NCBI GenBank assembly: GCA_017554305.1
Contig: JAFZIN010000017.1
Location: 1,919-65,918, forward strand
DNA: 64,000 nt
Direction: 5' to 3'
Source: Bacteroidales bacterium
Lineage (GTDB): Bacteria > Bacteroidota > Bacteroidia > Bacteroidales > UBA932
Shown: positions 30,159-50,324 of the stretch, piece by piece
Layout: each line of letters begins with the position of its first letter
How positions within the stretch are numbered: the stretch's first letter is position 1
The notes under the pieces: generated by a model
What the model saw: only the letters and a program-made list of their open reading frames with translations
What the model was told of the DNA's origin: nothing
Databases searched by the model: none
Position numbers and translations under genes: made by a program

Positions 30159-30173
30159 TAGAACAGATAGAAT

Positions 30174-31058: not shown

Positions 31059-31101
31059 TATTGCCTTTTTCTCTTTTTTGCTCAAAAGCGGCATGTATCT
31101 A

Positions 31102-31129: not shown

Positions 31130-31146
31130 AAATGAAAAAGAATATA

Positions 31147-31154
31147 TATATTTG
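31147..31154 (+). promoter_or_regulatory. Bacteroidetes -7 promoter box TAtaTTTG
   Basis: TAnnTTTG match 18 nt upstream of ATG 31172. Confidence 0.45.
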
Positions 31155-31171
31155 TGGAAAATTAAAAAGAT

Positions 31172-32296
31172 ATGAATCCTTTTTACTTGATTCCACATAC
31201 GCCTGAGCCATATTTCTGCGATAGGAAGAAAGAGACGGAAGATCTGGTTCACTTTCTTGAAAATGGACAAAATGTTACCCTAATTGCCCCTCGCAGATAT
31301 GGGAAAACGGGTCTTATTTACCATGTTTTTGATAAATTAGCGAAGAAAAAGGGCCGCATGGAGTTATTCTATGTGGATATCTATGCTACCAGCAGTGTTG
31401 ATGATTTTATAGCCGTCTTTGCAGAATCAATTGCAAAGGTGCTGAAGAAAAAATCTTTGGTGAAATCGTTTCTGAAATTCCTTAGCCGTATCCGACCGGT
31501 AATAAGCCAAGATCCATTCAGCGGCGAACCCAAGTTTTCTTTTACTCTGGATACGGATGCAGACCGCCGCTATTCACTTAAAACACTGCTTGATTATCTG
31601 GAACACAGACCAACCAAAGTTATTGTGGCCATTGACGAATTTCAGCAAATCCGCGAATATGATGGCATGTCCATGGAGGCTCTACTTAGGACTTATATAC
31701 AGCCTCTTACCAATGTTCAGTTTATCTTCTCCGGCAGCCGGAAGCACATGATGTCTGAAATGTTTACATACGAGAAGAGCCCCTTTTATGAAAGTGCCTC
31801 GCTATACTATTTGGATAAAATAGACAGAGTTGTCTATGCATCTTTCATCAAAGAACAGTTTGAAAAAGAGAAGAAGCATATAACAGAAGATGCCATAGAC
31901 TATATATTGGAATGGACACGTTGTCATACTTTCTATACTCAATCCTTATGCAACCGAGTTTTTTCAAACGTTCGGAAAGAAGCCAGCATTGTAAATGTTT
32001 TTATGGCAGCAGATGCTTTACTATCAGAGAATTATGAAACTTTTCTTGAACGGCGTTCACTTCTTACGCCCAGGCAATGGAAGTTCCTCATAGCAGTTGC
32101 CAAGGAGGGTATTGTGAACGAACCAACAGGAGCTGCTTTCCTGCAGAAATATAACCTAGGAGCTCCCTCAACGGTCTCCAGATTGCTCTCTGCTCTTACG
32201 GAAAAAGAATTACTCCTGGAAACCAAGTCTTTGGAAGGCAGTTCTTACTGTGTTTATAATGTTTTCTTATCCAGATGGTTGGAAAGACTGGGATAG
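31172..32296 (+). CDS. AAA+ ATPase (archaeal-ATPase/DUF234-type, C-terminal wHTH-like)
   Basis: Walker A APRRYGKTGL, Walker B VIVAIDEFQ, sensor-like FIFSGSRKH. The C-terminal ~90 aa (RQWKFLIAVAKEG...STVSRLLSALTEKELL) look like a winged helix. Confidence 0.75.
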   Translation: MNPFYLIPHTPEPYFCDRKKETEDLVHFLENGQNVTLIAPRRYGKTGLIYHVFDKLAKKKGRMELFYVDIYATSSVDDFIAVFAESIAKVLKKKSLVKSFLKFLSRIRPVISQDPFSGEPKFSFTLDTDADRRYSLKTLLDYLEHRPTKVIVAIDEFQQIREYDGMSMEALLRTYIQPLTNVQFIFSGSRKHMMSEMFTYEKSPFYESASLYYLDKIDRVVYASFIKEQFEKEKKHITEDAIDYILEWTRCHTFYTQSLCNRVFSNVRKEASIVNVFMAADALLSENYETFLERRSLLTPRQWKFLIAVAKEGIVNEPTGAAFLQKYNLGAPSTVSRLLSALTEKELLLETKSLEGSSYCVYNVFLSRWLERLG

Positions 32297-35909: not shown

Positions 35910-36807
35910 CACTATTTACCAGCCCTACACCGGTGAAAACCAGTATTGTAGCAAAGACCTTCAGAGCATTTAAAGTATCCAGGCCCAGGATAAGGGCTAT
36001 TACCATCGCGATGACCGGTTGCACATAACTGTACATACAGACCACTACCGGGCGGAGTCTTTTTTGCCCTATCGGGATAAGAAAATATGCTATAAATGTG
36101 GAACCTACAACAACATAGAGCACATGCCAGATTATATTGGCAGGAAGTGCTGTGAGGTTGGAGGCTGCAAACGATCTGAAAGAGAGGGGGATAGCCATAA
36201 GAGATGAGAAGAGGAACATCCATTTCATAAAGGTTACCACCGAGTATTTTTGAATCAGAGGTTTGAAGATTCCTACGTAAGAGGCAAAGCTTAAGGTGTT
36301 TACAAGCATTGCCAGGATACCGGTAAGAGAAGAAGAGTCTGCTCCGGTGCTAAGTGAAACACAGTTGAAAATCAGTATCAGAACTCCTACAAGGCTGAGG
36401 CCTATGCCCGCAACTCCGCTCCAGGTAATCTTCTCATTTATAACAATTACAGAGATTATGAGTGTCATAATGGGACTCAGCGTACTCATTATGGAAGCAT
36501 CTATGGCGGTGGTCTTGGTTATGGCATAAAGGAAGGAGACCTGAGTCATAAAAAGCCCAAGGAATGAGGCAATAAACACCTTCCCCATATCTCTGAGTTC
36601 TATCTTCTCCTTTGGTGCGGTAAAGAGAGACCATATCCAAAAGAGAGCGGTTGCACCAAAAGCACGGAGGCAGAACAGGGCCATTGGAGTCAGATTACCG
36701 TCCAGCGCTATATACTTGCAACTGACTATGTTAAAGCCAAAGATCATATAGGCCGCAAGGCAGGCCATATTCCCCACAAATATACCGTTGCTTTTTGCTG
36801 AAGTCAT
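35884..36807 (-). CDS. EamA/DMT-family transporter
   Basis: 307 aa, ~10 TM helices in two EamA-like halves. Confidence 0.8.
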   Translation of the reverse strand: MTSAKSNGIFVGNMACLAAYMIFGFNIVSCKYIALDGNLTPMALFCLRAFGATALFWIWSLFTAPKEKIELRDMGKVFIASFLGLFMTQVSFLYAITKTTAIDASIMSTLSPIMTLIISVIVINEKITWSGVAGIGLSLVGVLILIFNCVSLSTGADSSSLTGILAMLVNTLSFASYVGIFKPLIQKYSVVTFMKWMFLFSSLMAIPLSFRSFAASNLTALPANIIWHVLYVVVGSTFIAYFLIPIGQKRLRPVVVCMYSYVQPVIAMVIALILGLDTLNALKVFATILVFTGVGLVNSEKTKRMAQ

Positions 36808-36879
36808 TACCCTGATTATTGGGAGGCGAAAATAAGAAAAAACTGATTACCTTCATTTGCATTATTCCAATTCAATCCT

Positions 36880-36901
36880 TAATTTTGTACATTATAATGT
36901 A
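36880..36901 (+). promoter_or_regulatory. -7 box TAatTTTG followed by a perfect 14-bp palindrome TACATTATAATGTA (putative TA operator)
   Basis: TAnnTTTG at 36880..36887. The self-complementary 14-mer at 36888..36901 ends 7 nt before ATG 36909. Confidence 0.55.
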
Positions 36902-36908
36902 CTTAAAT

Positions 36909-37175
36909 ATGGTTGTCATAAGTTCTGCAGAGTTAAGAAGCAATATGAAGAAGTACCTGGATATTGCCAAACGAGAACAGGTACTAATTCAGCGCGGAAA
37001 AAACGAAACATTCGTTCTTTCCTTGCAACAAAATTCTATTGAATATGATCTTTCAAGGTCAATAACAGTAGATAAGGTTATAGAAAAGGTACGCCAAGGG
37101 CTTACTGAAATGTTTGAAAAAAAAGAAACTTTAAGAGGTAGACGGGATGAGGGTGATGTTTCTTCCAGAGGTTAG
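36909..37175 (+). CDS. Phd/YefM-type antitoxin
   Basis: Start set at MVVISSAELRSNMKKYLDIAKREQVLIQRGKNETFVLSL, the classic Phd/YefM N-terminus. The 36819 start in the track adds an implausible hydrophobic leader across the promoter. Confidence 0.65.
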   Translation: MVVISSAELRSNMKKYLDIAKREQVLIQRGKNETFVLSLQQNSIEYDLSRSITVDKVIEKVRQGLTEMFEKKETLRGRRDEGDVSSRG

Positions 37176-37353
37176 TCAACAGTTTATAGAACTGGCTGAA
37201 ATTCTTTATAATAAGGGTTATATGAATTTTCTGGATACTGCTCTGGAGTATTCGGAAAGTCTGTTTCGAGATATTCAGATTAATTTGCCGCTGAAGGTAC
37301 ACAGAAAGGCACCGGCATGGTTCGACCGCATAGGTAAAGATACATTATTTTGA
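37147..37353 (+). pseudogene. Putative toxin partner, probably truncated or frameshifted
   Basis: 68-aa ORF MRVMFLPEVSQQFIELAEILYNKGY... overlaps the antitoxin 3' end by 29 nt. It is followed by ~180 nt with no convincing ORF. Toxins paired with Phd-type antitoxins are normally ~90-110 aa. Confidence 0.35.
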
Positions 37354-37531
37354 TTCCATGCAAGTTTTTTATCAACTCTTTGAACGTCAGATGCCACTGT
37401 TATCATTCGGAATGGGTGATTTGGGAAAAAAAACAAGCCACTCTTTCTAAAGATATCAGAGAGCACTCGTTGAGAGGTTACCCCAGTTCGGGATAAGAAA
37501 GTCGCATAAAAAGCTGTCATCTGTCAAGACA

Positions 37532-38590
37532 TCATGGTGAATCTGATGACATTTTGCATTCAGTCCGAAGGTCTTCGAGGGCTTTAAAATCAGCAGGATA
37601 ATATTTCACGATAGGGGCGATGGTCATTCTTGCCAGCTTCCCTAATTTCTTCTCAAGAATTTTATATTCTTCGTATTGAGAGAGAATTAATGCCTTATTT
37701 TCCTTCGTCAAAGGAAGATCTTTCACCAGACCTGATTCCCTAATCATTACCCTGCTCTTAGCAGCTACCGACAACTCCACATGCAATTGCACATAACAGA
37801 TAATGTCGAAAAAGTCCTCAGGAGGAAATTTCTCTTTAATAGACACTAAGAAGATGCCTGTTTGGGTGTTGTCCAACTGACCGCTCTTGATGGAGTCAAG
37901 CAAAGCGAGCTGTTTGTCGAGACCTTTGTCAATCCAACGGTGGATCATATCTACATCGTAGTAATAAGTCCACATCAGAAGCCCGCCCAAAGTGCCGAAT
38001 ACGAAAATGAACTGCACCAGCGGCATGAAATGGAAGGCATTGTGGAACACGTGCAGCACAGGTGCTTCCAATAACAGAAATATAGACATTCCTATATCGC
38101 TCTTTTTGAGGCCTAATCGAGAACGGGAACGTTCAATGATACGAACTGCCAGCATAAGTCCGGCAGCGACGATGGCACTGCATCCCATGTGGACAAGGGC
38201 CACCTCCAAACCTCGGAACAGTACGGTTCCAAGGCTCATTCCATTGCCCAACAGCAGGTAGAAGATGTTCTCAAGGATGGAGAACCCACCACCTACGGCA
38301 GCACCGCAGATGACACTGTCGATGAAGAACACGATCTTCTTTCGGGTGGCTAACCAAAGGAGTGGGAGGGCCTTGACGATCTCTTCCAAAACAGGATTGA
38401 AGAATTCAGACTGGTTCTCGGAGAGGATAGACCCAGTTAACTGGAACAAGCCGAAGCAGACCAATGCCGCTACCATACCACACAGCACCTGCAAGAGGAG
38501 GTTCTTCACGCTGATGAGTGAGAAATTGTCAATCTTATAGACTACAAAGATGTAGATGACAACAGGGAGGATGGCAGCGACAAATAACAT
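37532..38590 (-). CDS. PrsW-like intramembrane protease with ~150-aa cytoplasmic C-terminal extension
   Basis: 352 aa. Polytopic N-terminus with EEIVKALP, FSILENIFY and ALVHMGCSAIV motifs in successive TM helices, as in PrsW/CPBP-type proteases. Its ATG overlaps the upstream stop (TAATG, 38588..38592). Confidence 0.65.
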   Translation of the reverse strand: MLFVAAILPVVIYIFVVYKIDNFSLISVKNLLLQVLCGMVAALVCFGLFQLTGSILSENQSEFFNPVLEEIVKALPLLWLATRKKIVFFIDSVICGAAVGGGFSILENIFYLLLGNGMSLGTVLFRGLEVALVHMGCSAIVAAGLMLAVRIIERSRSRLGLKKSDIGMSIFLLLEAPVLHVFHNAFHFMPLVQFIFVFGTLGGLLMWTYYYDVDMIHRWIDKGLDKQLALLDSIKSGQLDNTQTGIFLVSIKEKFPPEDFFDIICYVQLHVELSVAAKSRVMIRESGLVKDLPLTKENKALILSQYEEYKILEKKLGKLARMTIAPIVKYYPADFKALEDLRTECKMSSDSP

Positions 38591-41586
38591 TACAACAATT
38601 TGAGTGAAATCATAAATTCATTGTTTCCACGTCGTCCTCCGTCAAATCCTGCTGGTGCAAACAGATGACCGTAACCAATAGACAGTGTAGTCTTGAGATA
38701 ATTCAGGAACACCAGTTCGATAGTCACCTGAAAACCTGTGCTGTAATACATCTTGTGGGCTGCGTGGGGATTCCAGGCGGAGAGCCCTGTTCCGAAGAGC
38801 GAACACTGGATCCACGTCGGATAGCAGAACAGCGCACCAAAGTTGTTGAGCCGTAGCGGACGCAGGTTGAGCTCTGCCGTCGCCTTGGCAAAGGAGTGCG
38901 CCGGGATGGCATCGATGGCGGCACCGGGCATCGCCAAGGTCGTACGATATTGGAAGGCGTTCCTATAGTCGACATAGTTATTGCGGAAACCTCCGAAATA
39001 GGTATTGCCGAACACAGACTCTTCATCTCCGAAGTTGTGACCTGCTGCCGTACGGAGCCAGAACGAGGTGTTTCTGTCAAAGGGCACCAGTGTGCCGAAG
39101 TTGCCTGTAGCCTCTACAGAGGGGTAGACTCGTCCGCCAGCCAGATAGCCGTAGCCTTCAATGCCTAACTCGTAGCCCTGCTCTTTCATCACACCGCCCA
39201 ATGAGGTGCGGATCTTTGACCACTTCCCGTAAACCGATGCTGTCTGCATCGACCTGACATCTTGCACCTCAATCTCCTGATACAAGGGCAGTGCGTCCAT
39301 GTCGCCGTAGGCAGCCACCGAGAAGCCCCATGATTTGTCGTACGGCGTAACTAATGAATTGGAATAGTCGTAGGCCAGCTGCACCACATAACCTTTACGG
39401 CTTCTGCGCATCGGACCGAAGAGGTCGTAGAAGTCTGTATGGTTCCAGGCGGCCTTGAGGTTCCAGAAATAGTATTTCCAGTCGAAGTCGATATGGAATT
39501 TGTTCTTCCAGTCGTTGTTACTCCAAGGGGAGAGGCCGACTGATAGTTTCATGCTGCTCAGTCCCACGGGATCGTTCACATTGAAATGATAGCCTAACAC
39601 GGGGGTCATGTGATTCCAGGCTTTGGAATCGGTAAAACCGCTGATGATAGGATAGGCTCCTGCGAACCTCATCTCTTTAATGACATTGTAGGATGTGATG
39701 TTGTTATATACATCGCCAAAGTTCTTCCTGGGCAGCGAATTTCTGAGCAGACCGACCTGTTCCATCGCCTCCTTGTTGTTCTCATAGGCGAGCTGACCAT
39801 AAAGGTTCACTGCATTGGCATCCTTCACTACCTCACGGGAGAGCAAGACGGGTTGCAGTCCGTCGCGCTTGAACTGGAGTGCTAGCAGCTGGCCGGGCGT
39901 AATCTCCAATGGTGCGAAAAGGCCGATGTCGGTATTGGTAAGCATCTCCATCTCGCGTGTCTCTATGTTGATCTGCCAGAGGTTGGAGACACCAGTATAG
40001 TAGGAGCTGCCAATCAGGTACTTGTCGTCGAGTGAGAAGCGGAATTGTCCTAAGTTGCTGTCTTTCCAGGTTATCAGTTTCACAGGCTTGAAGATGGCCT
40101 TAGCCAGTTCCTCGGTATTGTATAGCAAAAGTGTGTGCTCGCCGTTGTCGCCTTGGCTGGTGAGCGACAGCCATTTGCCGTCGTGACTGATATCCGTGTC
40201 GAACACGCTGACACCAAACGGGAAGGCATAGATCATTTCAGGATTCTCCAAATCGCGGTCCAGACGCACAATCGACTGTGTGCCGCCGTTGGAGAACAGG
40301 CCGTAGAGACAATCGTGGGTATTGTCATACACGATATTGCCGATGCGCTGGTACTTCTTTTTCTTCACCACCTTCTTCTGTCGGATGTCATAGATTTCCA
40401 AACCGCGCATCTTCGAATTGTTCGAGGTATAGATGAGGCGCTGGCCTTTACGGTCAAGTGCTACGTAAGCAGGGTCATAGAGCTGGATGCCGTAGATGTC
40501 GTTCAGCCTCTTCTGCTCGCCCGTCTGCAGGTCGATTTCCGTCATGTGTGCAAAGTCACCGGGAGCATTCATGGCAGCATAGGCCTTTTGGGTAGCAGGG
40601 TCATAGACGAATGGCGACACAGACCCCAGCGGTTCTTTGGTCAGTGGCTTGGTCTTTGTGATGGGATATTGGCGGATGGCAGCGAGGTTCTCTTCCTGAT
40701 GCTTATTCTCGTCCTCCTTCCAGTCGTTCCATACTTTTCTGAGCGACTGCCCATAGACCTTCTTGAACTGTTTGCCGAAGAAGGTGCGACTGTCAGCCGT
40801 TCTGTTATAGAACTGAATCATCTTCTCGTAGCCATAGGTCTTGGTGAGGTAGTTCACGAAACGCGTACCGTAGAGATAGGCATTGGCGCCCACTTGGAAG
40901 TCCTTTGTGGAGCCTTCCGTTTCCAGGCCCACCACTGAGTAGAGCTTGTCGCCTTCGTTGATGATACTGCGGAAATACATCTCATCGTAGCCCCCTAAGG
41001 CACGTCCGACACCACCGCCGAGCCAGGTCTCCATGAAGCAGGCGATACCCTCGTGATACCAACGGGGCGAATACCAACGGGGCACGCTCAGATAGCTCCA
41101 TAGGGCTGAGATTGGCTGAGAATTGTCGGTGTCCACCTTCGTACCAAAGAAACGTCGCCAGTTGAGGTCGCGACGATTGTACTTGTCAGTCATGACGATG
41201 TGCGTAAATTCATGCTTGAACAACTGACTGTATCGTTCGCCTGCGGGGTTGATGTAATACGACATGTTCAGCGGAGCCATGCCGATCTGTATAAAAGAAC
41301 GCGGTAATGGCGATGCTCCGCCATTACCGTCGTCCTCCCAGTCTGTCAATAACAGCAAGGGTGCTTCTGGCTGATAGATGGAATCACTGGTCCATATCTG
41401 CTGATGAAGCGCTTTGCCGTTCTGGTACATGCGTATCATGTGAGGGATGTAGCGCGAGAGGTTCTTGTCAAAGAACACCAGCGTGGCCTCGTCCGTCTTA
41501 TACTGGTAATAGGTCTGGTTCTGCCCCCTGGATATACAGGGAATCATCGACAGCAGAAGAACAGCAATCCAGTTACGCATATACAA
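38590..41586 (-). CDS. 998-aa secreted protein: HExxH metallopeptidase-like N-domain, TolB/PD40-like beta-propeller, C-terminal beta-barrel-like region
   Basis: Signal peptide MRNWIAVLLLSMIPCISRGQ. HEFTH plus downstream WYHEGIACFME (gluzincin-like). PD40-like repeats (LIYTSNNSKMRGLEIYD, ISHDGKWLSLTSQGDNGEHTLLLYN, FSLDDKYLIGSSYYTGVSNLW). The last ~400 aa have amphipathic beta-strand periodicity. Confidence 0.6.
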   Translation of the reverse strand: MYMRNWIAVLLLSMIPCISRGQNQTYYQYKTDEATLVFFDKNLSRYIPHMIRMYQNGKALHQQIWTSDSIYQPEAPLLLLTDWEDDGNGGASPLPRSFIQIGMAPLNMSYYINPAGERYSQLFKHEFTHIVMTDKYNRRDLNWRRFFGTKVDTDNSQPISALWSYLSVPRWYSPRWYHEGIACFMETWLGGGVGRALGGYDEMYFRSIINEGDKLYSVVGLETEGSTKDFQVGANAYLYGTRFVNYLTKTYGYEKMIQFYNRTADSRTFFGKQFKKVYGQSLRKVWNDWKEDENKHQEENLAAIRQYPITKTKPLTKEPLGSVSPFVYDPATQKAYAAMNAPGDFAHMTEIDLQTGEQKRLNDIYGIQLYDPAYVALDRKGQRLIYTSNNSKMRGLEIYDIRQKKVVKKKKYQRIGNIVYDNTHDCLYGLFSNGGTQSIVRLDRDLENPEMIYAFPFGVSVFDTDISHDGKWLSLTSQGDNGEHTLLLYNTEELAKAIFKPVKLITWKDSNLGQFRFSLDDKYLIGSSYYTGVSNLWQINIETREMEMLTNTDIGLFAPLEITPGQLLALQFKRDGLQPVLLSREVVKDANAVNLYGQLAYENNKEAMEQVGLLRNSLPRKNFGDVYNNITSYNVIKEMRFAGAYPIISGFTDSKAWNHMTPVLGYHFNVNDPVGLSSMKLSVGLSPWSNNDWKNKFHIDFDWKYYFWNLKAAWNHTDFYDLFGPMRRSRKGYVVQLAYDYSNSLVTPYDKSWGFSVAAYGDMDALPLYQEIEVQDVRSMQTASVYGKWSKIRTSLGGVMKEQGYELGIEGYGYLAGGRVYPSVEATGNFGTLVPFDRNTSFWLRTAAGHNFGDEESVFGNTYFGGFRNNYVDYRNAFQYRTTLAMPGAAIDAIPAHSFAKATAELNLRPLRLNNFGALFCYPTWIQCSLFGTGLSAWNPHAAHKMYYSTGFQVTIELVFLNYLKTTLSIGYGHLFAPAGFDGGRRGNNEFMISLKLL

Positions 41587-41594
41587 CGCCGTGA

Positions 41595-42629
41595 TTATGG
41601 CACAATTTTGGGGCCTTTGTTCAGCTTTACACTATTGTTTGCTGCTGCAGTCTGACGGATTACGTTGCCAATCATCAATGCATTATAGGAATCGATCTTA
41701 CGGTGAGCAAGAACTTCCTGCTGGGCATTGTGGGGATTGATCTTACGGCCAGCAAGAACCTCCTTCTGAGCATTGTGGGGATTGATCTTACGGCCAGCAA
41801 GAATTTCCTTCTGAGCAAGGAGAACCGAACTGATTTCACTTTCGAGAACCTTTGGCCGAATTTTGCCTCCAATCGTGTTGGGAAGCTTCATGCTCTGGGC
41901 CAACTCGCAGCTTTGCAGCACAACTATACGCTCAGCAATATCGAAATTAGCTACGGCAGCAAGAGCCTTTTCGCCACTAAGCAGGTTACCCTTCTTTGCC
42001 AAAGCCTCAGCACTTGCCTTGTCACCCTCAAGGGCAGCAGTCATCTGCTGGTAATCCAACCACTGGTCGCGGACCAGTTTCAATTTGTCATCACCCTGGG
42101 CTGTCTCCAGATACTTGTCGGTGGTCTCAATGAAACGGTTGGCCAAATTGTTCTGCTTCTGCAGCGTGGTGTAAGCCAGTGAGGCGTTGATGGTAGACTG
42201 GGCCAAGTCGGGACACTCCTCACCTCCAAGGGCGGCATTCAGTTTTTCGGCTGACTCTGCCAGCGAGCTGGCAACGTTGTCCACCATCTCACGGCTGGCG
42301 TTCATCTCCTTAAGCACCTCGGCAAATGCGGGGATGTTGCCGGCTACCTCATTTGACATGTCAACCAACGTGCCAAACTGGGCGGCGCGTGTCTGCATCA
42401 CCACCTGGGCTACCACGATATCATCCCTGAAGGCTGAGTCGGTCTGAAGGAGTTCTTCCATATTAGTAAGCTTCTCGGAAACTTTCTCACGAGAGAATTT
42501 AGCAGCCTTGGCGATATCGCCATCTGCCTCATTGAGACCCACTGGCCAATCAACAAAATAAGAGGTGATTAACCCTATGGCGAATATAGCTGCAACCGAA
42601 CACAAGATAAGAATACTTTTCTTTTTCAT
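41595..42629 (-). CDS. N-terminally anchored helical protein with C-terminal 15-aa tandem repeats
   Basis: TM anchor KKKSILILCSVAAIFAIGLI, an A/E/L-rich helical body and 3 x Q(K/Q)E(I/V)LA(G/H)RKI(N/D)(P/S)(H/Y)NA. Its stop lies 8 nt before the next gene's start. Confidence 0.6.
   Translation of the reverse strand: MKKKSILILCSVAAIFAIGLITSYFVDWPVGLNEADGDIAKAAKFSREKVSEKLTNMEELLQTDSAFRDDIVVAQVVMQTRAAQFGTLVDMSNEVAGNIPAFAEVLKEMNASREMVDNVASSLAESAEKLNAALGGEECPDLAQSTINASLAYTTLQKQNNLANRFIETTDKYLETAQGDDKLKLVRDQWLDYQQMTAALEGDKASAEALAKKGNLLSGEKALAAVANFDIAERIVVLQSCELAQSMKLPNTIGGKIRPKVLESEISSVLLAQKEILAGRKINPHNAQKEVLAGRKINPHNAQQEVLAHRKIDSYNALMIGNVIRQTAAANNSVKLNKGPKIVP
41679..41813. repeat. 3 x 45-bp in-frame tandem repeat
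   Basis: Units at 41769..41813, 41724..41768 and 41679..41723 (minus-strand order) encode QKEILAGRKINPHNA / QKEVLAGRKINPHNA / QQEVLAHRKIDSYNA. Confidence 0.9.
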
Positions 42630-42697
42630 AAGCCTAATAATATAAGTTCTTATTCTTTTCTCTGACGCTAAATGTCATTTTATGACATCGATGTTGT

Positions 42698-42705
42698 CAA
42701 ATATA
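42698..42705 (-). promoter_or_regulatory. Bacteroidetes -7 promoter box (TAtaTTTG on the minus strand)
   Basis: Plus-strand CAAATATA, 68 nt upstream of ATG 42629. Hairpin atgtcat-ttt-atgacat sits between the box and the start. Confidence 0.4.
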
Positions 42706-42854
42706 CAACATATTTTGTTTCCATCCAAACTTTTTTGTATTTTTTGTATATTTGAACTTAAATAACTGAAAAAGCAACATGGAAAATCTTAGCGATTTGT
42801 CCATGCTGCCTATTTTCAATCCGTTACGCTAAATCAATGCGTAATTGAATGATC

Positions 42855-42873
42855 AATACTCATCCTCGTTGAA
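42855..42873. repeat. attL-like direct repeat AATACTCATCCTCGTTGAA
   Basis: Matches 50417..50435 at 18/19 positions. On the minus strand it reads ...LFNEDEY-stop, a displaced remnant of the DUF2795 3' end. Confidence 0.85.
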
Positions 42874-42932
42874 GAGATTTTTGGTACTTATAAACTATTT
42901 ATAATCAGTGTAATAATTTTTTAACATAGCAT

Positions 42933-42943
42933 AATAGACAAGG
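42933..42943. repeat. Arm-type site candidate AATAGACAAGG (left end copy)
   Basis: The same 11-mer, in the same orientation, recurs at 50243..50253 and 50297..50307 next to the other element end. Confidence 0.6.
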
Positions 42944-42949
42944 ATATTT

Positions 42950-42995
42950 GTGTAAAAATTAAGGGAATTTGAGAATATCTATCTCTAATTCCCTT
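42950..42995 (-). terminator. Terminator-like hairpin after the Xis-like gene
   Basis: 9-bp arms aagggaatt / aattccctt (42961..42969 and 42987..42995). On the minus strand the hairpin is followed by aattttt. Confidence 0.5.
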
Positions 42996-43009
42996 TCTTT
43001 TTCAAGCAC

Positions 43010-43240
43010 TTACGCAACGTTCTCAACTTTCGGATAAAAGTTTGTTTTGTCATTCAAAAAGTCCAACAGGTGTTGGTGTTGAATGTAGATTTTGCTGCTG
43101 CCTGGAACTTGCGAATAACTAATCAATCCATTTCTAATCCACCTTCTAAATGTATTGTCTCCAATATCGAGTAGTTTTTTAACGTCATTCGCAGTATAAA
43201 CAGGTTTCCATAAATTGCTCTCGCTTCCATCTGCAACCAT
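43010..43240 (-). CDS. Excisionase/MerR-type HTH DNA-binding protein
   Basis: 76 aa. YTANDVKKLLDIGDNTFRRWIRNGLISYSQVPGSSKIYIQHQHLLDFL is the Xis-type HTH_17 pattern. It is the first gene inside attL. Confidence 0.7.
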   Translation of the reverse strand: MVADGSESNLWKPVYTANDVKKLLDIGDNTFRRWIRNGLISYSQVPGSSKIYIQHQHLLDFLNDKTNFYPKVENVA

Positions 43241-43676
43241 ACTAAATGATTTATTCTCTTATTCGCTTTTCAGCCCCTTGTTGTTCCTAACAAAGTTTGG
43301 AGTAGCCAGGGAAAACTTCGAACCCCATTTTTGTAAATATACAAAAAAAATCTGAGAAAGCCAAAGTCATCAGCACCAGTGCGATTGAGCAACCTATGAA
43401 ACTTGTCCGCCCTCTCTATTTTGTGATAATTCTGAAATCGTACGAAAAATTGTAGAATTAGCAGGCACTTTTGGATAATCTTGAAATTTGTCCGCCCTGC
43501 TTGCAAAAGGCAGTTGGTGTGCTACTTACATAAGTCTAAAGTGGAAAGTGAAACCTCAGCAACGGGCTAAAAATCTATCGTACTGAATTAGTGTGATTTG
43601 TATATTTCACTTCTGCGAGAGGTGATACACCAAAAAAAAACACTACCTTTGAGTGCAAGTATTCAAATTTACATCA

Positions 43677-44969
43677 ATGGAAAGTATCCGTTTTATTGAC
43701 TTGTTCGCAGGAATGGGGGGAATTCGGCTTGGATTACAACAAGCCTGCATAGATTTGGGCATTCATTCTCATTGTGTCTTTACAAGTGAGATTAAGTCAG
43801 CGGCGATAAGTGTTTATAAGCAAAATTTCCCATCGGACGTTATTTCAGGAGATATAACAAAGATTTCATCAGACGATATTCCTGATTTTGATATTCTCCT
43901 TGCGGGTTTCCCGTGCCAAGCGTTTTCTTATGCGGGCAATAGGGATGGTTTTGCTGATGCTACAAGGGGAACTTTATTCTTTGACGTTTTGAGAATTTTA
44001 CGAGAAAAGAAACCTATGGGTTTTATTCTTGAAAATGTTGAGGGCTTGGTTTCACACGACGGAGGACGTACATTCAAAACAATCATTTCAAGTTTAGAGG
44101 AACAATACAAAGTTTCTTATAGCATCCTTAATGCAAAGAGTTTCGGTGTTCCGCAAGATAGGAAGCGAATATACATTGTCGGAGTTAAAAAGAATAAGAG
44201 AAAAGTCAGCCTTGAAAATTTTTCCGCCTCCGGCGCAAAAATCGGAGACATCCTTGAAAAAGGACTTCCTATCAGCAAAACTCCTTTTATGAAAAAACTA
44301 CTATCTCATTATTCCGTTGAGGAATTAGAGGGGAAGAAAATTAAAGATAAGAGAGGCGGTTCGGACAATATCCATAGTTGGGATATGGAGTTAAAAGGGC
44401 GTGTTTCAAAAGAACAAAAGGAATTGTTAAACGAAATGTTGAAAGCCCGCAGACAACATAAGTGGGCAGAGGAATGGGGAATTGATTGGATGGACGGAAT
44501 GCCATTAACCGAGACTCAAATTAGTACATTTTACTCCCATCCGCGACTTGGGAGTATGTTGGAGGACTTGACAAAGAAAGGTTATTTGGTTTATGAATAC
44601 CCTAAAAAGAAAGTGGTTTCATCATCAGTCGTTTCTGGAAGAGAAGTTAAAATAAGCAGACGTGTTCCCGACGAGACAAAACCGAAAGGTTATAATATCG
44701 TTGCAGGAAAATTGTCTTTTGAGGTATCTGAAATTCTTTCACGTAAATCTATTGCTCCTACATTGGTGGCAATGGATATGCACAGAATACACGTAGTGGA
44801 TGGCACTGGCGTAAGAAAGTTGTCTTTGAGAGAAGGATTAAGGCTGTTTGGTTATCCCGACAATTATAAGTTCAGCATTACAGAGAAGGAAGGTTATGAC
44901 TTGTTAGGTAATACGGTAGTTGTCCCTGTAATTAAAGCGGTTGCTAAAAGATTAATATCATCCTTGTAA
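43677..44969 (+). CDS. DNA (cytosine-5)-methyltransferase
   Basis: Start set at ATG 43677 (MESIRFIDLFAGMGG). Motifs I FAGMGG, IV GFPCQAFS, VI ENVEGL, VIII QDRKRIYIVG, IX REGLRLFGYPDNY, X GNTVVVPV. Long variable region between VIII and IX. Confidence 0.93.
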   Translation: MESIRFIDLFAGMGGIRLGLQQACIDLGIHSHCVFTSEIKSAAISVYKQNFPSDVISGDITKISSDDIPDFDILLAGFPCQAFSYAGNRDGFADATRGTLFFDVLRILREKKPMGFILENVEGLVSHDGGRTFKTIISSLEEQYKVSYSILNAKSFGVPQDRKRIYIVGVKKNKRKVSLENFSASGAKIGDILEKGLPISKTPFMKKLLSHYSVEELEGKKIKDKRGGSDNIHSWDMELKGRVSKEQKELLNEMLKARRQHKWAEEWGIDWMDGMPLTETQISTFYSHPRLGSMLEDLTKKGYLVYEYPKKKVVSSSVVSGREVKISRRVPDETKPKGYNIVAGKLSFEVSEILSRKSIAPTLVAMDMHRIHVVDGTGVRKLSLREGLRLFGYPDNYKFSITEKEGYDLLGNTVVVPVIKAVAKRLISSL

Positions 44970-44970
44970 T

Positions 44971-45687
44971 ATGAAGATTAGCATAGACAGAATGTTTCAA
45001 GTCTTGAAAGACGAACTTGAAAATGACAATACAGGTAAAATCACATTCTCGCTAGCAGAAGTTGAAATTGTTGTGAAGCAGAATAATGTTGTTGGAAATA
45101 TCATTGAAGAATGGTTGGATAGTTGGATTACAAAGCACGATTACGAACACATCTATAATCACGGGCAATGCTCTCCTGACTTTTGGTTTGACATAAACAA
45201 TTTGAATAAAGATTGGCTTGAAGTCAAGTCTTTTACAGGCTCTGCTAATTTTGACATAGCGAACTTTATGTCGTTCATCAATGAAATCGTAGATAAGCCT
45301 TGGAAACTTGACGCGAAATATCTTTGCATTGAATATTCAATGGAAGAGGCATCTGGTATTGTCTCCATTGATAATGTATGGCTTAAAAATGTTTGGGAGA
45401 TTTCTTGTCCAAGCAGAAAATGGGCGTTGAAGGTTCAAGATAAAAAGGGTGTAATCTATAACCTTCGTCCTGCATCGTGGTATTCAGATAGAAGTGATTA
45501 TTGTCCTTTCAGAACACTTGAACATTTTTTATCTGCCCTTGACTATGTTGTAAAGACATATCCACCGACATCACACATAGGGCTGACATTTAGGAATAGA
45601 TTGGAAGCGGCTCTCTCTGCTCACAAGGGCACTCAATTTCATATTCCGCTCTGGCAAGATATAGCGGAACAATATGACTGGGAATAA
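44971..45687 (+). CDS. Type II restriction endonuclease (PD-(D/E)xK)
   Basis: Starts 1 nt after the methyltransferase stop. CSPDFWFDINNLNKDWLEVKSF gives PD...E-V-K. Size 238 aa. The family and specificity are not recognisable by eye. Confidence 0.7.
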   Translation: MKISIDRMFQVLKDELENDNTGKITFSLAEVEIVVKQNNVVGNIIEEWLDSWITKHDYEHIYNHGQCSPDFWFDINNLNKDWLEVKSFTGSANFDIANFMSFINEIVDKPWKLDAKYLCIEYSMEEASGIVSIDNVWLKNVWEISCPSRKWALKVQDKKGVIYNLRPASWYSDRSDYCPFRTLEHFLSALDYVVKTYPPTSHIGLTFRNRLEAALSAHKGTQFHIPLWQDIAEQYDWE

Positions 45688-45690
45688 GGT

Positions 45691-45921
45691 TTATATTGCA
45701 ATTAAATCTCCTTTCAAAACCACCCTTGTTGAGCCGAGAGCCCAACGCCAATTTAAGTCTTTGACAAGACACCTGTCGCTGTCCTCTCCATAGTCATCAA
45801 TGACAAGCATTCGGACACTTTCATCGCCTGGGTCAATTACTTCCCGAAACTTAACATACATCCCTGTAAGGATTGGTTCATCTTGTATATCGCTCATATC
45901 CTTAAAATTGTAAATCATCAT
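45691..45921 (-). CDS. Hypothetical protein (76 aa)
   Basis: Overlaps the stop of the upstream short recombinase gene by 20 nt. No motif recognised. Confidence 0.4.
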   Translation of the reverse strand: MMIYNFKDMSDIQDEPILTGMYVKFREVIDPGDESVRMLVIDDYGEDSDRCLVKDLNWRWALGSTRVVLKGDLIAI

Positions 45922-46501
45922 ATACTTCCCCGAGTTCCTGCTGGCGTAAGCCGATATATCTGCGGGTAATTGACGGGGAGGTATGGTTCATTATCTCACT
46001 CAATTTCAATAGGGCTAATTCTCCTCGTCCTACATTGTTTTCCCGCTCCCATATCTGCCTTGCCCAAGTCTTTCGGAGTGTGTGGGTGCTAAAATTAGCG
46101 ATTTTAAGACAATACTGCACTCTCATCCACTTGAAATGCCTATTTATCATTTGAATAGTGGTTGTAGAGCCGAAACGATTAAGGAAACAAGGTTCATCCA
46201 TATCATCCGCCCCGATACCAAGAGCCTCAGCACAATCCTTAATGTGTCCCTGATAGCCTCTATTTATTCGTACAACCCTCCTTTTTTGGGTTTTCTGTTC
46301 GGTAATGACAAATTCCTCGGCATTGAGAATTTGACGCCAAGATAGAGCCAATAAATCGGAAATTCGTAAGCCAAAGAAACACCCGCATCCTACAAGTAAG
46401 GAAAGACGATATTTGCCATCCTTGTAGAGTTTGCGGACAAGGCTCATTGCGGTTTCCCAAGGCAAGTAATCGGCAGTTGTATAACTATGTTTAGCACTCA
46501 T
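45902..46501 (-). CDS. Short tyrosine recombinase (catalytic domain only)
   Basis: 199 aa. GLRISDLLAL (Arg), THTLRKTWA (His-x-x-Arg), MNHTSPSITRRYIG (His...Tyr). No N-terminal arm- or core-binding domain. Confidence 0.7.
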   Translation of the reverse strand: MSAKHSYTTADYLPWETAMSLVRKLYKDGKYRLSLLVGCGCFFGLRISDLLALSWRQILNAEEFVITEQKTQKRRVVRINRGYQGHIKDCAEALGIGADDMDEPCFLNRFGSTTTIQMINRHFKWMRVQYCLKIANFSTHTLRKTWARQIWERENNVGRGELALLKLSEIMNHTSPSITRRYIGLRQQELGEVYDDLQF

Positions 46502-46613
46502 ATTTCAAATCTTTTAATAAGGAATAAAACTGATATGTTTATTTGTATTTGTCAATATATTTGCTTGATTTTAAGGCAATATGCTACTTCTCGTATAGGT
46601 GGGATATGGAACA

Positions 46614-46955
46614 TTAAGCCCCATATCCGATAAACGAGCCAATCCTCATTGATTTCCACTTTCCGCACTCACAATCTATGAAAGGAATTTGTCCGTAGCG
46701 GAGTTTTGGTTGTGTGCCAATCCGAGACGCTGTTTTTGCCTCAGCGAGAGAGGGTTTTGTTGTTCCCCAAAACTCACGAATAGAGCCATCAACCTTCTGA
46801 AAGTAGCCATGTACGATACCGCTTCTTAGACGAAAGACAAGTTCATTGCACTTTGACATTTGCAAAGCAGCAACAAATGTATCAATGCTTCTCATAGCGG
46901 AATACTTTGCTATTGTAAGTTCCTGATTACTAACTGTCATAATCTGTGTTTTCAT
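46614..46955 (-). CDS. DUF2693-like (SH3 beta-barrel) phage/plasmid-associated protein
   Basis: 113 aa. ...LVFRLRSGIVHGYFQKVDGSIREFWGTT...RYGQIPFIDCECGKWKSMRIGSFI resembles the DUF2693 pattern as I remember it. Confidence 0.45.
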   Translation of the reverse strand: MKTQIMTVSNQELTIAKYSAMRSIDTFVAALQMSKCNELVFRLRSGIVHGYFQKVDGSIREFWGTTKPSLAEAKTASRIGTQPKLRYGQIPFIDCECGKWKSMRIGSFIGYGA

Positions 46956-47110
46956 ATCCTGATACTTATTGGTTGTTTATATTATCTAATTTGTCTCTCT
47001 CTTTCAACGGTACAAAGATATGACAAATAAGCCTTATATGCAAACTTTTTATGACTTTTTAGTCTTTTTTGTCATATTATTTTAAATTTTCTCTAATTTT
47101 GTCTCTTGTT

Positions 47111-47353
47111 ATGAAGAAAACTAAGTTTGAAAAGAAGGTTATTCACCTTACTATCAAGGGCGAAACCCGTGAAGAGGACATTCATTCCTACTACGGGAGC
47201 GTTGCTTGTATCTACGACTATTATGACGCCGAGGATATTGGCATAACTTACGGCTCACTAAGAAATTACGGGCTATCTGAAAATAAATTTTATGAAAATT
47301 CAAAAGTTATAATTAGGCAAGGTAAGTTATTTACAAAAGATAGGAGTGTCTAA
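47111..47353 (+). CDS. Hypothetical protein (80 aa)
   Basis: Start set at MKKTKFEKKV. No motif recognised. Convergent with the Rep-like gene. Confidence 0.4.
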   Translation: MKKTKFEKKVIHLTIKGETREEDIHSYYGSVACIYDYYDAEDIGITYGSLRNYGLSENKFYENSKVIIRQGKLFTKDRSV

Positions 47354-47450
47354 AAGTAAAGTCAAGTTTTTTCTTGTAAAGTCCTTGAGATTGTTAGTAT
47401 TAACTCAAGAACTACTGTTATGGTGGGGGATATTGTTATTCTACCCCCTG

Positions 47451-48305
47451 TCACGACATTCTCAATAAGTCTATCCACTGAATTCTTTCTCGGTTTCGTT
47501 TAAAGCGGATAACTGACGAGAGGTGGTAAATAAAAATCTCCTTAAGAGTATCGTTATCAAAGAGCATGTCTGCTGTTGGAACGATATTCCTATTGCCGAA
47601 ATAATCCTTTAATTCTTGATATGGTAGGCGTACTTCCATACGATATAACCTCTTGGGTTTCTGATAGTAATCAAGGATATACTGCTTGTCTGAGGAGTTC
47701 TCTATTTCAGCCAATTTATCGTATGCTTGAACAACAATGCCAGCGTTCTTGTAACGTTGTGCTTTGCGTTGTTTTATCGTTATGGTAGGGTGCTTTAACC
47801 GCTCCAGGTTAGTAGAATACTCAAAATATATTTCGCTGAGAATTTTCTTTCTATCTTGAACTGCTTTGCCGTTTATTATTGTAGTAACCTCGGCATCACG
47901 CATCATCTTCTTTACCAAGGACGGAATGTTAAAACTGGCATCAAAGGCAATATCTATTGATGTTATGTTGTTGATGATAAATCCAAGAGTGTCAGGTAGT
48001 TTTAAGACGGTGTGGAGTAGTTTAGGGTTATAGAATACAGGGTTCATAACCTTAAAATACGTATGTATGATTTCATCGTCGTTATCCGTGTAATGCCCAA
48101 ATTTTAGTTGTGCTACTTGCTCGTTAAACATAAGTATATCAAAACAATAGCGAAACCTATCGTTGAGTATTCTATAAAAGGAAAAGTCGCCTATTTCAAT
48201 ATGTTCTCCTACTTCAACATTCTCAAATCGTTGTATATCAGCGTTGTTTGCAAGATAACAAATTCGTAGTTCATCTATTACAAATCTATGTTCACTGACT
48301 TTCAT
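47451..48305 (-). CDS. Rep_trans-like rolling-circle replication initiation protein
   Basis: 284 aa. Hallmarks in the right order: N-terminal IDELRICY, ITSIDIAFD, VVQAYDKLAEI, LYRMEVRL. Confidence 0.55.
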   Translation of the reverse strand: MKVSEHRFVIDELRICYLANNADIQRFENVEVGEHIEIGDFSFYRILNDRFRYCFDILMFNEQVAQLKFGHYTDNDDEIIHTYFKVMNPVFYNPKLLHTVLKLPDTLGFIINNITSIDIAFDASFNIPSLVKKMMRDAEVTTIINGKAVQDRKKILSEIYFEYSTNLERLKHPTITIKQRKAQRYKNAGIVVQAYDKLAEIENSSDKQYILDYYQKPKRLYRMEVRLPYQELKDYFGNRNIVPTADMLFDNDTLKEIFIYHLSSVIRFKRNRERIQWIDLLRMS

Positions 48306-48505
48306 GGTTTTTCATTGTTATTGGAATTATTGTTCTTCTCGTCATTACTATCTGGACGATGAGGTACTGTCTGCCAATAGTCCAACATCGCTTGGCGGAT
48401 GTGCTCTTTATGCCATTCGCTTTTCTTTTTGCCTTTACTTGTTTGGCTGATTTTCTGTTTTGTCTCATCGGGTATCTCCCGATATTGTCTCTTGTATTCT
48501 GTCAT
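48302..48505 (-). CDS. Small NUMOD3-like DNA-binding protein
   Basis: 67 aa. IPDETKQKISQTSKGKKKSEWHKEHIRQAM matches the NUMOD3 repeat pattern, with an N/S-rich tail. Its stop overlaps the Rep start (ATGA-type, 48302..48305). Confidence 0.5.
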   Translation of the reverse strand: MTEYKRQYREIPDETKQKISQTSKGKKKSEWHKEHIRQAMLDYWQTVPHRPDSNDEKNNNSNNNEKP

Positions 48506-48831
48506 AGTCTTATCTTTTTCTAATAAATAGTAGTAGGTTTAGAAAAAGTTGAAAGAGTAGTAGAATTTTTTTTTAGAGATTGGCAGATAGACTACGTTTA
48601 CCAAACTAATTGATGCCTACCTTTGATACTATTCGACACCATTTGAGAGGGGGATAACGTCTTAAAAAACAGATAAATTGGGGAGTGTGGGGTGGGGATA
48701 AGAAAAACGGCTTGCTGTGCTGTTCAGAAAGTGATTTCTTGTCTAAAACGAAAACGTCTTATAGAGAACAGAGCGTTTTAGGCGTTTTATTTTTGGGAAT
48801 TAACTCTCGAAATTAGACTTGGTAAAAATTG

Positions 48832-50196
48832 CTAGAAATCAGGCAAAAATGAGTAGTTGAGTTTGGATAGTTCTTTTTCAAGAGAGGTTTGTGTGTATTC
48901 CGAATAAACTTGCTCGGTAATATCGGTAGAACTATGCCCAAGCATACGGCTAACGACAGAAAGGCTCATGCCATCGTTGAGGGCACGACAGGCAAATGAA
49001 TGCCTGGCAAGGTGGAAATGGAGTTTGAAAGGTAGTCCCATCTTCTCCCCGACAACATCTAATGCTTGGTTAATCTTCTTGTTGCAAGAGTTGCGGGTTG
49101 AGTATAAGAGTTCCTGGTTGTTAATGTCAAAATCATCGCTGACTAGGTCAAAGACAAATTTCTTCCTGCGGTTCTTTGCCTTCCATCTTTCAAGAATTTT
49201 AATAGCGGCATCGCTGAGGGGTATGGTGTGGCGCGGCTTATGCCCCTTGGCGGTTTTGATTAGGATTTTCTTCAATTCTTTCTTCTCAAAATTGATATTG
49301 CTCCACATCAGGGTAAGGGTATCCACAAGCCTCAGCCCGCCAGCGTGAAATGCAAATAAGAACATTTCAATATACTCTTTTCTGCGTGGCTCGGTGTCGT
49401 TGTTGTAAAACTCTACTAACTTGTTTAACTGCTCTTTGGTTAAGTCCTTTCCGTCGTAAGTTTCACTATCAAGGTTCGGGGTTTCCTCCACCCTGCAATC
49501 CTTAATTTGAGCATACACGCTGCCTTCTATAAGTCCCTCATCTTTTGCCCTTTCGCAAGCGTTTATGATTGGTGTTAGGGCATGGTTGATTGTGGCATCG
49601 GAATTCTTTTCATCCCGTCGGTATTGGATATACTCATCTATGAGAGCCAATGAAATATCCCCGAGATACAATGCGGACTTATCGTTGTAAGTTCCTTTCT
49701 TCTTTGCTTTTAGGAACTTGGCAAATCCGTTCATACAACTAATCCCGTTCTCATAGCGGCTCTTACCGATTTTGCCTCGGGTGTATTTGGATTTGAGATT
49801 GTCAAGAACATATTGGATAAAATCCTTACCCCCATCCTTCCTTGTAAGTGGGGCATCGTTGAGGATACCCCTGATTACGCTCAATGTCATTTGGTGGGGG
49901 TGCTTCTGACTATATTCTTGGAGGCAGGTATCGTAATGGCTAAGTTTTCCGTGCAGGAGGTTATTCTGCCGTTGATAGTCTCTTCCATAGGAGGCACGGA
50001 GTTCTCCCTTTCCCGAGGAACCCTTCTCGTTCCAATCGTCTACCCTTACCCTTATCCCCGTATCTTTTCGGATAGGGGCGGCATCAAGCCAAGTGTATTC
50101 AAAGTAAAGCGTGTATGTCTTTGTCTTATCGTAGCCGTTTTTGGGATACTTTAACCTTAGTTTTCCATTGGGATATTCCCGCCTGTGCCTACCCAT
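48832..50196 (-). CDS. Tyrosine-type site-specific integrase (Bacteroidetes long form)
   Basis: 454 aa. N-terminal arm-binding-like region, SAM-like core-binding region and catalytic GGLRLVDTLTL, HLARHSFACRAL, LGHSSTDITEQVYSEY. Confidence 0.9.
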   Translation of the reverse strand: MGRHRREYPNGKLRLKYPKNGYDKTKTYTLYFEYTWLDAAPIRKDTGIRVRVDDWNEKGSSGKGELRASYGRDYQRQNNLLHGKLSHYDTCLQEYSQKHPHQMTLSVIRGILNDAPLTRKDGGKDFIQYVLDNLKSKYTRGKIGKSRYENGISCMNGFAKFLKAKKKGTYNDKSALYLGDISLALIDEYIQYRRDEKNSDATINHALTPIINACERAKDEGLIEGSVYAQIKDCRVEETPNLDSETYDGKDLTKEQLNKLVEFYNNDTEPRRKEYIEMFLFAFHAGGLRLVDTLTLMWSNINFEKKELKKILIKTAKGHKPRHTIPLSDAAIKILERWKAKNRRKKFVFDLVSDDFDINNQELLYSTRNSCNKKINQALDVVGEKMGLPFKLHFHLARHSFACRALNDGMSLSVVSRMLGHSSTDITEQVYSEYTQTSLEKELSKLNYSFLPDF

Positions 50197-50307: not shown

Positions 50308-50324
50308 TTATATGCCACTTTTTT

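Follow-up and report, generated by a model that had tools for sequence, protein, structure and literature searches.

What do three adjoining genes do when their products are predicted to span the whole cell envelope of a rumen Prevotella? The question is raised by a minus-strand operon in a 64,000-nucleotide stretch of Bacteroidales bacterium DNA (contig JAFZIN010000017.1), referred to here as the window. Its genes are g1, for an anchored protein with a repeat tail (family A), g2, for a protein with a predicted metalloprotease domain, a beta-propeller and a beta-barrel (family B), and g3, for a PrsW-family intramembrane protease (family P). The reading favoured here, to which a probability of roughly 0.5 is given, is that the trio may form a trans-envelope regulated-proteolysis module of an envelope-stress circuit of the extracytoplasmic function (ECF) sigma type. 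It is drawn from the domain architectures, the conservation of catalytic residues, the co-conservation of the three genes, the sigma and anti-sigma genes clustered with them and a shared promoter motif.

Conservation of the trio and the sigma factor link

The conservation of the gene set was analysed in 80 species-level loci with genes called, using iterated profiles for A, B and P. Linkage was counted over the 46 loci having at least 6 kb of upstream and at least 3 kb of downstream flank. A was present in 43 of these and directly adjoined B in 40, PrsW was present in 42, and A and PrsW were found together in 41. All three genes are therefore kept in 41 of 46 species-level loci from several phyla, which agrees with the view of the trio as one system in the earlier reading of this DNA from its letters alone (the sequence-only reading) and supports a functional unit. 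The order of the genes is A-B-P in Prevotellaceae and their relatives and P-A-B in other loci, and elsewhere P-S-R-A(-A)-B or S-R-A-B-P, where S is an ECF sigma gene and R the gene of a membrane protein. This permuted order argues for selection on linkage and not for inherited synteny.

An ECF sigma gene and a membrane protein gene lie between PrsW and A in 15 of the 46 loci, and the identity of the sigma factors in these 15 loci was confirmed by Pfam (Sigma70_r2, r4_2). The protein that follows the sigma factor has a cytoplasmic N-terminus of about 95 residues with the motif (I/L)DGxLT, one transmembrane helix and about 130 periplasmic residues, a layout shared with RsiW-type anti-sigma factors. 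Upstream of 12 of 19 ECF sigma genes and of nine A genes stands a bipartite motif, CCAACTTTT-N13-14-TAwTT; two of these A genes are in loci with no sigma gene in the sampled flanks. The same motif was upstream of none of 58 PrsW genes and of only 3 of 360 other genes. Standing ahead of sigma and g1-like genes in loci L040-L084, it is a candidate promoter of the ECF type. Its presence at the sigma and A genes and its absence from PrsW genes place A-B in the sigma transcription unit or regulon, and PrsW outside it. In several loci the sigma ATG comes directly after the second motif element, which suggests leaderless transcripts of the sigma gene there. The Prevotellaceae form of the cluster, that of the window included, is without the bipartite motif and has a -33/-7 promoter instead.

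Two sigma genes were considered and dropped. The ECF sigma gene of the window (18479-19036, minus strand) was tried as the cluster sigma; it shows only 24-35% identity to the cluster sigma factors and is followed by a secreted protein of 160 residues, not by the cluster anti-sigma. The sigma gene that adjoins the trio in locus L045 encodes a 286-residue RpoD-type housekeeping factor and not an ECF factor.

Downstream of the g2 homologue, two sorts of neighbour turn up repeatedly in loci L049, L052-L054 and L056 and in L064, L066, L069, L070 and L074. There is a partner-switching set made up of a Cache-SpoIIE phosphatase, an RsbW-like kinase and a STAS protein, and there is an RND efflux pump (HlyD and AcrB). 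Their recurrence may reflect shared synteny or a functional link.

Domain architecture of g2

The g2 gene (38590..41580, minus strand) encodes 996 residues from its ATG, or 998 from an in-frame TTG at 41586, as defined by the open reading frame and its homologues. The sequence-only reading had described a signal peptide, the motifs HEFTH and HEGIACFME, a propeller of PD40/TolB-like repeats and barrel-like periodicity. An AlphaFold model, Foldseek comparison and conservation bear out each of these at the level of prediction. The model, made with an alignment of 110 sequences, has a mean predicted local distance difference test score (pLDDT) of 87.9 and a predicted template modelling score of 0.88.

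The signal peptide covers residues 1-19 (41524..41580), where the model places a helix at residues 2-21. Its cleavage site is deduced from the sequence, and Gln20, the putative mature N-terminus, is present in at least 90% of sequences. The predicted zinc-metalloprotease domain follows at residues 20-302 (40675..41523) and is defined by its conservation and by an alpha/beta model with pLDDT mostly 80-96. HEFTH occupies residues 123-127 (41200-41214) and YHEGIACFME residues 175-184. Across 110 relatives, down to 33% identity, H123, E124, H127 and E177 are invariant or nearly so, and E177 (41050-41052) is a candidate third zinc ligand. On account of this conservation the protease site looks competent. 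Peptidase_MA_2, the Pfam profile for this type of MA-clan metalloprotease, matches g2 with E=3.6e-5 and 24.1 bits, below the cut-off of 32.4.

The model then gives a six-bladed beta-propeller at residues 310-581 (39838..40653), built of 24 strands in six groups of four. Its best PDB matches in Foldseek were TolB structures (E=6e-9 to 1e-7, probability 1.0), and the PD40 profile of Pfam matches 9 of 28 g2 relatives. A linker at residues 582-637 holds only three short helices. No POTRA profile matched g2, which is consistent with the non-POTRA 'WD40-like' group of Omp85 proteins. The C-terminal residues 638-996 (38593..39669) form a 16-strand beta-barrel when strands are assigned to the model by DSSP (pLDDT mostly 85-97). 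Strands 11 and 12 are joined by a long conserved loop, FGGF(R/G)NNYVD. The barrel was matched by Foldseek to the BamA of D. radiodurans (8xnb, E=6e-6). The Omp85-type profiles of Pfam do not match the g2 of the window itself; in homologues at 82-83% identity Omp85_2 passes its cut-off of 23.1 bits with 24.0-24.4, and it matches 4 of 28 relatives.

The family is large. It comprises 1,939 clusters at 50% identity, with at least 590 matches among species-representative genomes, and its hosts include Bacteroidota, Ignavibacteriota, Acidobacteriota, KSB1, Latescibacteria, Gemmatimonadota, Marinimicrobia and others. The relatives are annotated only as 'hypothetical' or 'PD40 domain-containing' in all sources. 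Nothing significant came from sequence searches of the PDB, whether with g1, g2 and g3 or with a profile built on the protease domain of g2.

This architecture can also be read as that of a structural or biogenesis device, in which A would be a stalk that docks on an Omp85-type protein, in the manner of TamB-TamA or of the TolA-TolB/Pal layout. The device would serve the assembly or quality control of outer-membrane proteins with a BepA/DegP-like protease; PrsW would merely turn over A, and the ECF sigma would be the regulator and not the output. The Omp85 barrel and TolB-like propeller of g2 suit such a role, and so does the A-B adjacency, which at 40 of 46 loci is the tightest link in the set. 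The placing of A-B under a sigma-dependent promoter is as would be expected of stress-regulon effectors, and Heinz and Lithgow likened the family to a BamA-BamB fusion (PMC4104836). However, g2 is without a POTRA domain, A is small, helical and unlike TamB, and the clusters hold no Tol, Pal or Bam genes. The retention of PrsW in 42 of 46 loci is also above what would be expected for housekeeping turnover. The structural explanation is considered rather unlikely on this balance.

The PrsW-family protease g3

The g3 gene (37532..38590, minus strand) encodes 352 residues, which comprise a PrsW-family intramembrane protease and a C-terminal tail. The Pfam profile PF13367 matches residues 30-194 (E=4e-16, 59.5 bits against a cut-off of 23.5), and close homologues are named 'PrsW family glutamic-type intramembrane protease' in the source databases. 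The NCBIfam equivalog model of B. subtilis PrsW, NF033739, scores 18.6 bits against a cut-off of 225; g3 is thus a member of the PrsW family and not the equivalog or orthologue of the B. subtilis protein. The PrsW-like core with a soluble tail of about 150 residues, as proposed from sequence, is upheld by the Pfam match, with the tail at about 140 residues.

The motifs that define PrsW proteins are EExxK, FxxxE and HxxxN/D. The polytopic core of g3, residues 1-212 (37955..38590), has these motifs as E69 E70 K73 (38372-38386), FxxxEN at residues 103-108 and HxxxN at residues 180-184 (38039-38053), together with H134. Conservation reaches 90% or more for E69 E70 K73, F103 E107 N108, H134, H180 and N184 across 71 PrsW proteins encoded in clusters of this kind, and the core motif residues are invariant in 37 close PrsW proteins. 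The family has been described as carrying 'four conserved motifs' in its membrane helices (PMC3482391).

The helical tail at residues 213-352 (140 residues, 37535..37954; pLDDT 70-90) is as conserved as the core, with W219, G237, G245, D262, C265, E272, E285, E308 and P326. It is probably cytoplasmic by the positive-inside rule, as a strongly basic RIIERSRSRLGLKK loop is followed by two membrane helices. Fusion of PrsW domains to cytoplasmic signalling domains has been noted earlier, and such proteins were read as 'signaling peptidases' (PMC3482391). A Foldseek search with the g3 model returned no match below E=0.1. The tail was also tried as an anti-sigma-like domain and this was unsupported, as hhalign comparison with anti-sigma, sigma and A families showed no similarity.

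The anchored protein g1

The g1 gene (41595..42629, minus strand) encodes 344 residues. From the open reading frame and the alignment of its relatives these are divided into an N-terminal anchor, a conserved and putatively periplasmic domain of about 220 residues, and a variable repeat tail. The anchor is predicted at residues 6-26, ILILCSVAAIFAIGLITSYFV (42552..42614), and it would hold the protein in the inner membrane. It does not qualify as a lipobox, as Leu stands at position -1 and relatives do not conserve the Cys. A juxtamembrane motif with G37 and K41 is conserved. A repeat search gave three tandem units of 45 nucleotides (15 residues, AQKE(I/V)LAGRKINPHN, 80% identity) at residues 272-316 (~41680..41816). 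The single anchor and the three 15-residue repeats noted from the sequence alone are therefore sustained, while for the long helical body the support is compositional, a helix-favouring region of about 200 residues with two Pro in residues 31-230. No match to g1 was found in Pfam, NCBIfam, PADLOC or the PDB.

Homologues of g1 (loci L001, L013, L021, L045, L049 and others) are 316-482 residues long. Their first 220 or so residues are conserved, and each lineage has its own short tandem repeat as the tail, such as NVQKMS, ESAANLFG, about 25 copies of NTPGLN, NQNLVVNQNEVA and FTDAEKLG. The repeat copy number varies between close relatives. Judged from these alignments, the family evolves fast in this low-complexity C-terminus and is conserved elsewhere.

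Proposed mechanism

In the regulated-proteolysis reading, B would be inserted in the outer membrane through its 16-strand Omp85-type barrel, with the protease and the six-bladed TolB-like propeller facing the periplasm. The propeller could restrict access of the protease to unfolded or extended polypeptides, as in a gated protease. A, anchored in the inner membrane, would reach with its helical domain and repeat tail toward B as a partner, tether or substrate. P, present constitutively in the inner membrane, would cleave a single-pass membrane protein at the outer face of that membrane, as in the sigma-W/RsiW system. Where it is encoded, the RsiW-like anti-sigma would be the likely substrate of PrsW, and its cleavage would free the ECF sigma to transcribe its own gene and A-B. 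The products of A-B might in turn act by feedback on PrsW, as a sensor, or in damage repair only, as an effector. In the window the sigma and anti-sigma genes are absent from the cluster and the promoter is of the housekeeping type, and so the substrate of PrsW there may be A or an anti-sigma encoded elsewhere. How the B domains and the PrsW tail are oriented in the envelope, who cleaves whom and what the stimulus is are proposals of this scheme. The predicted locations of the three proteins agree with the span of outer membrane, periplasm and inner membrane that had been suggested from the sequence, and the clustered ECF sigma and anti-sigma genes of 15 loci support a role in signalling.

Several points weigh against this reading. 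The periplasmic location of the protease of B is argued only by analogy, PlpD being the precedent for an enzyme domain that stays in the periplasm when fused to an Omp85 barrel (PMC11116518), and the interaction and cleavage among A, B and P are proposals. A has almost no cytoplasmic part and hence cannot itself be an anti-sigma factor. The window holds no anti-sigma gene of the cluster type, and its only ECF sigma gene lies 19 kb away and shows only generic similarity. About two thirds of the sampled loci have no clustered sigma and anti-sigma genes, and the A and P genes of these loci are without the motif. The model of g3 is poor in the membrane core (pLDDT 55), its alignment being shallow (at least 81% identity).

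A more specific form of the proposal is possible, though tentative and on the doubtful side. It is an undescribed pathway, widespread in diderm bacteria, that would lead from the Omp85 protease/propeller protein through the A stalk to PrsW, with its cytoplasmic effector domain, and so to release of the ECF sigma. If true, diderms would possess an equivalent of sigma-W/RsiW/PrsW that has its own outer-membrane sensor.

Comparison with known systems

The closest precedent for g2 is the 'WD40-like' Omp85 subfamily, which was catalogued by Heinz and Lithgow in 2014 with no function assigned (PMC4104836). Their fold-recognition table lists a BamA barrel, a TolB propeller and M1-aminopeptidase-type matches, and no POTRA (PMC4104836). 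The likeness to g2 is one of architecture, which is the same. The gene neighbours, A, PrsW and the link to ECF sigma and anti-sigma are unmentioned in that paper (PMC4104836). No paper linking PrsW with an Omp85 protein, or describing the trio or its sigma link, was found among 8 million full texts, subscription journals lying outside this scope. The sequence-only reading knew of no described system with this gene trio; the architecture of g2 had in fact been catalogued (PMC4104836), and the trio as a system is apparently undescribed. What is new is the joining of known protein families in an undescribed, widely conserved system.

The sigma-W/RsiW/PrsW system of B. subtilis, in which PrsW is the site-1 protease of RsiW (summarised in PMC3482391), has a PrsW-family protease with the same conserved motifs as g3. 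The likeness extends to the 15 related loci that pair PrsW with an ECF sigma and a single-pass anti-sigma of RsiW topology. In contrast to that system, g3 is non-orthologous and has an extra conserved tail of 140 residues, the organism possesses an outer membrane, A and B are always linked as two additional envelope proteins, and the cluster of the window is without sigma and anti-sigma genes.

In the sigma-E/RseA/DegS system of E. coli the state of the outer membrane is relayed by proteolysis of a single-pass anti-sigma factor, and the logic proposed for the trio resembles it. The clusters differ from sigma-E and Tol-Pal in holding no gene for a DegS/RseP-type protease, TolQRA or Pal. The likeness of the g2 propeller to TolB is of fold only (13-16% identity), and the N-terminal domain of TolB is absent from g2.

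The arrangement of g2 also invites comparison with PlpD and the patatin-like Omp85 proteins, which have an N-terminal enzyme fused to a 16-strand Omp85 barrel; PlpD carries a patatin lipase and one POTRA, whereas g2 lacks a POTRA and joins a metalloprotease to a propeller. By this comparison B could be a self-exporting surface protease (a type Vd-like autotransporter) that serves rumen protein degradation and nutrition, with A and PrsW as maturation factors. The host is a rumen Prevotella, presumably with many secreted hydrolases, which would suit such a role. An N-terminal enzyme with a C-terminal Omp85 barrel is also what PlpD offers as it was originally interpreted (PMC4104836), but the enzyme domain of PlpD is now shown to stay periplasmic (PMC11116518). 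Passage of a folded six-bladed propeller through a barrel of 16 strands is unlikely, the two conserved partners belong to the inner membrane, and a link to ECF sigma and anti-sigma suits sensing better than feeding. A surface protease is accordingly judged improbable.

Operon layout, promoter and leader

The three open reading frames all lie on the minus strand, g1 at 41595-42629, g2 at 38590-41586 or 41580, and g3 at 37532-38590. The homologues of g2 have 994-996 residues and start at the ATG two codons downstream of the TTG, at 41580. The g1-g2 spacer is for this reason 14 nucleotides and not the 8 counted before. The TAATG overlap of g2 and g3 (38588-38592) follows from the coordinates, the stop of g2 and the start of g3 sharing one base.

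A single -7 box ahead of the three genes, as seen in the sequence-only reading, was confirmed by the sequence and by a motif scan. The box, TATATTTG (TAnnTTTG; 42698..42705, minus strand), is conserved in relatives and is the sole TAnnTTTG match on the minus strand between 36784 and 42698. The motif is short and is frequent by chance, with 67 matches observed in the window against 48 expected; the weight of this box thus comes from its position and conservation and not from its occurrence. The -33 element, TTTG (42726..42729, minus strand), lies 20 nucleotides upstream of the -7 box, and the block AAAAAGTTTGGA around it is conserved in related loci. The pair fits the -33/-7 consensus of Bacteroidetes promoters.

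Just downstream of the -7 box, the 5' untranslated region of g1 holds a 17-nucleotide perfect palindrome, ATGTCAT-AAA-ATGACAT (42672..42688, minus strand). It is part of a leader that is conserved across the Prevotellaceae cassettes (ATGACAyTTGACATCAGAGAAAAGAA in relatives), and a role as an operator or as an RNA hairpin is possible. No Rfam match was found within 36800-43700, and no intrinsic terminator was found after g3.

Composition and possible acquisition

The sequence-only reading had taken the operon to be compositionally atypical and horizontally acquired. The four 1-kb windows at 38-42 kb have a GC content of 0.50-0.52 and are the four highest of 64 (mean 0.445), which upholds the deviation in GC. 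At third codon positions (GC3) the only clear outlier is g2, with 0.668, which is 2.9 standard deviations above a background of 0.487 ± 0.063 over 49 open reading frames. The GC3 of g1 (0.562) and g3 (0.567) is only 1.2 standard deviations above it, at the upper edge of these 49. In g1, g2 and g3 alike AGA is avoided (0-0.10, with 0.39 in the background) and CGT preferred. Of the codons listed before as frequent, GCG and CCG are not enriched; the codons that are enriched are C-ending ones, ACG and CGT. In the genomes carrying the nearest homologues, genes in the flanks have the same Arg codon use as the trio, which therefore resembles those genomes and not the present one.

Comparison by blastn with nine related Prevotellaceae loci defined a cassette of 5.2 kb (37552..42745, minus strand) that comprises the promoter, the 5' untranslated region, g1, g2 and g3. 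The matches run mostly from ~37552-37555 to ~42745 at 82-92% nucleotide identity with sharp ends, those of L037 and L008 being cut by contig ends. Only the repeat region of g1 is unaligned within the cassette, and the flanks differ at every one of the nine loci. The foreign codons, the sharp ends and the differing flanks speak for acquisition. On the other side, no mobility gene lies inside the block, no full-length homologue of the trio was found among 72,556 plasmids or 50,697 phages, and the GC3 of g2 across the family tracks host composition over a range of 0.25 to 0.89. The trio shares 46-75% amino acid identity with Xylanibacter ruminicola, similar to the 60-66% of two other genes shared with the window. 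Contigs of the same species all carry the trio at the same place, with no presence/absence polymorphism. Horizontal transfer among rumen Prevotellaceae is, from these comparisons, plausible but not shown.

The same data bear on a further possibility, that a mobile or defence island carries the trio as cargo and that the three genes, as an accessory conflict system, arrived with the neighbouring restriction-modification element. Atypical codon usage, a cassette context that differs in each relative, and the adjoining integrases, HTH_17 gene and type II restriction-modification pair are as such an origin would have them. That element, however, is an integrative element of about 7.6 kb (42855-50435; GC 0.36-0.40), about 150 nucleotides upstream of the trio promoter, and it is bracketed by a 19-nucleotide direct repeat, AATACTC(A/G)TCCTCGTTGAA, at 42855-42873 and 50417-50435. 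The repeats exclude the trio, and the integrase/restriction element is thus a separate insertion. PADLOC gave no match at E<0.01 for g1, g2 or g3 (for g2 only SWIM_XIII, E=0.044), the plasmid and phage sets hold no full-length homologue, and the flanks of the relatives are ordinary housekeeping genes. An island origin is hence regarded as highly improbable.

Neighbouring features

The integrative element carries an HTH_17 gene (43010-43243, minus strand), a C5 cytosine methyltransferase (43653-44969) and an NgoBV-like type II restriction enzyme (44971-45687), the latter two matched by PADLOC. It also holds a truncated integrase (45902-46501), a gene of 284 residues with no assignment (47451-48305) and a full integrase (48832-50196).

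Between g3 and an EamA transporter gene, small plus-strand genes lie at 36819-37520. One of them encodes an antitoxin resembling Phd/YefM, for which the Pfam match (E=4e-4) falls below the cut-off, and is followed by an open reading frame of 68 residues that is called in contigs of the same species. The pair is probably a type II toxin-antitoxin system, as judged from this arrangement.

A second compositional outlier, of low GC, is found at 27429-32296. It includes a 909-residue DUF285 gene (GC3 0.33), a 294-residue Big_2 gene (GC3 0.35) and an ATPase. The DUF285 gene has the most deviant codon usage among the long genes outside the mobile element. At 16839-19036 the ECF sigma gene of the window is followed by genes for the secreted 160-residue protein, which is Lys/Gln-rich, and for a lipoprotein-like protein of 257 residues, a setting unrelated to that of the sigma genes clustered with the trio in other loci.

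Implications

PrsW-type proteases are common and, to our knowledge, RsiW is the only well-defined substrate, for the enzyme of B. subtilis. The 'WD40-like' Omp85 proteins have been without a function since they were catalogued in 2014. The linkage of the two, together with A and often with an ECF sigma and anti-sigma, lets both be tested for a part in the sensing of envelope stress or in quality control of the outer membrane. Cultured hosts are at hand in Xylanibacter ruminicola D31d and Prevotella sp. P6B4, and the predicted sigma-dependent promoter offers a ready reporter. The trio of rumen Prevotella is probably an uncharacterised envelope-stress proteolysis system.

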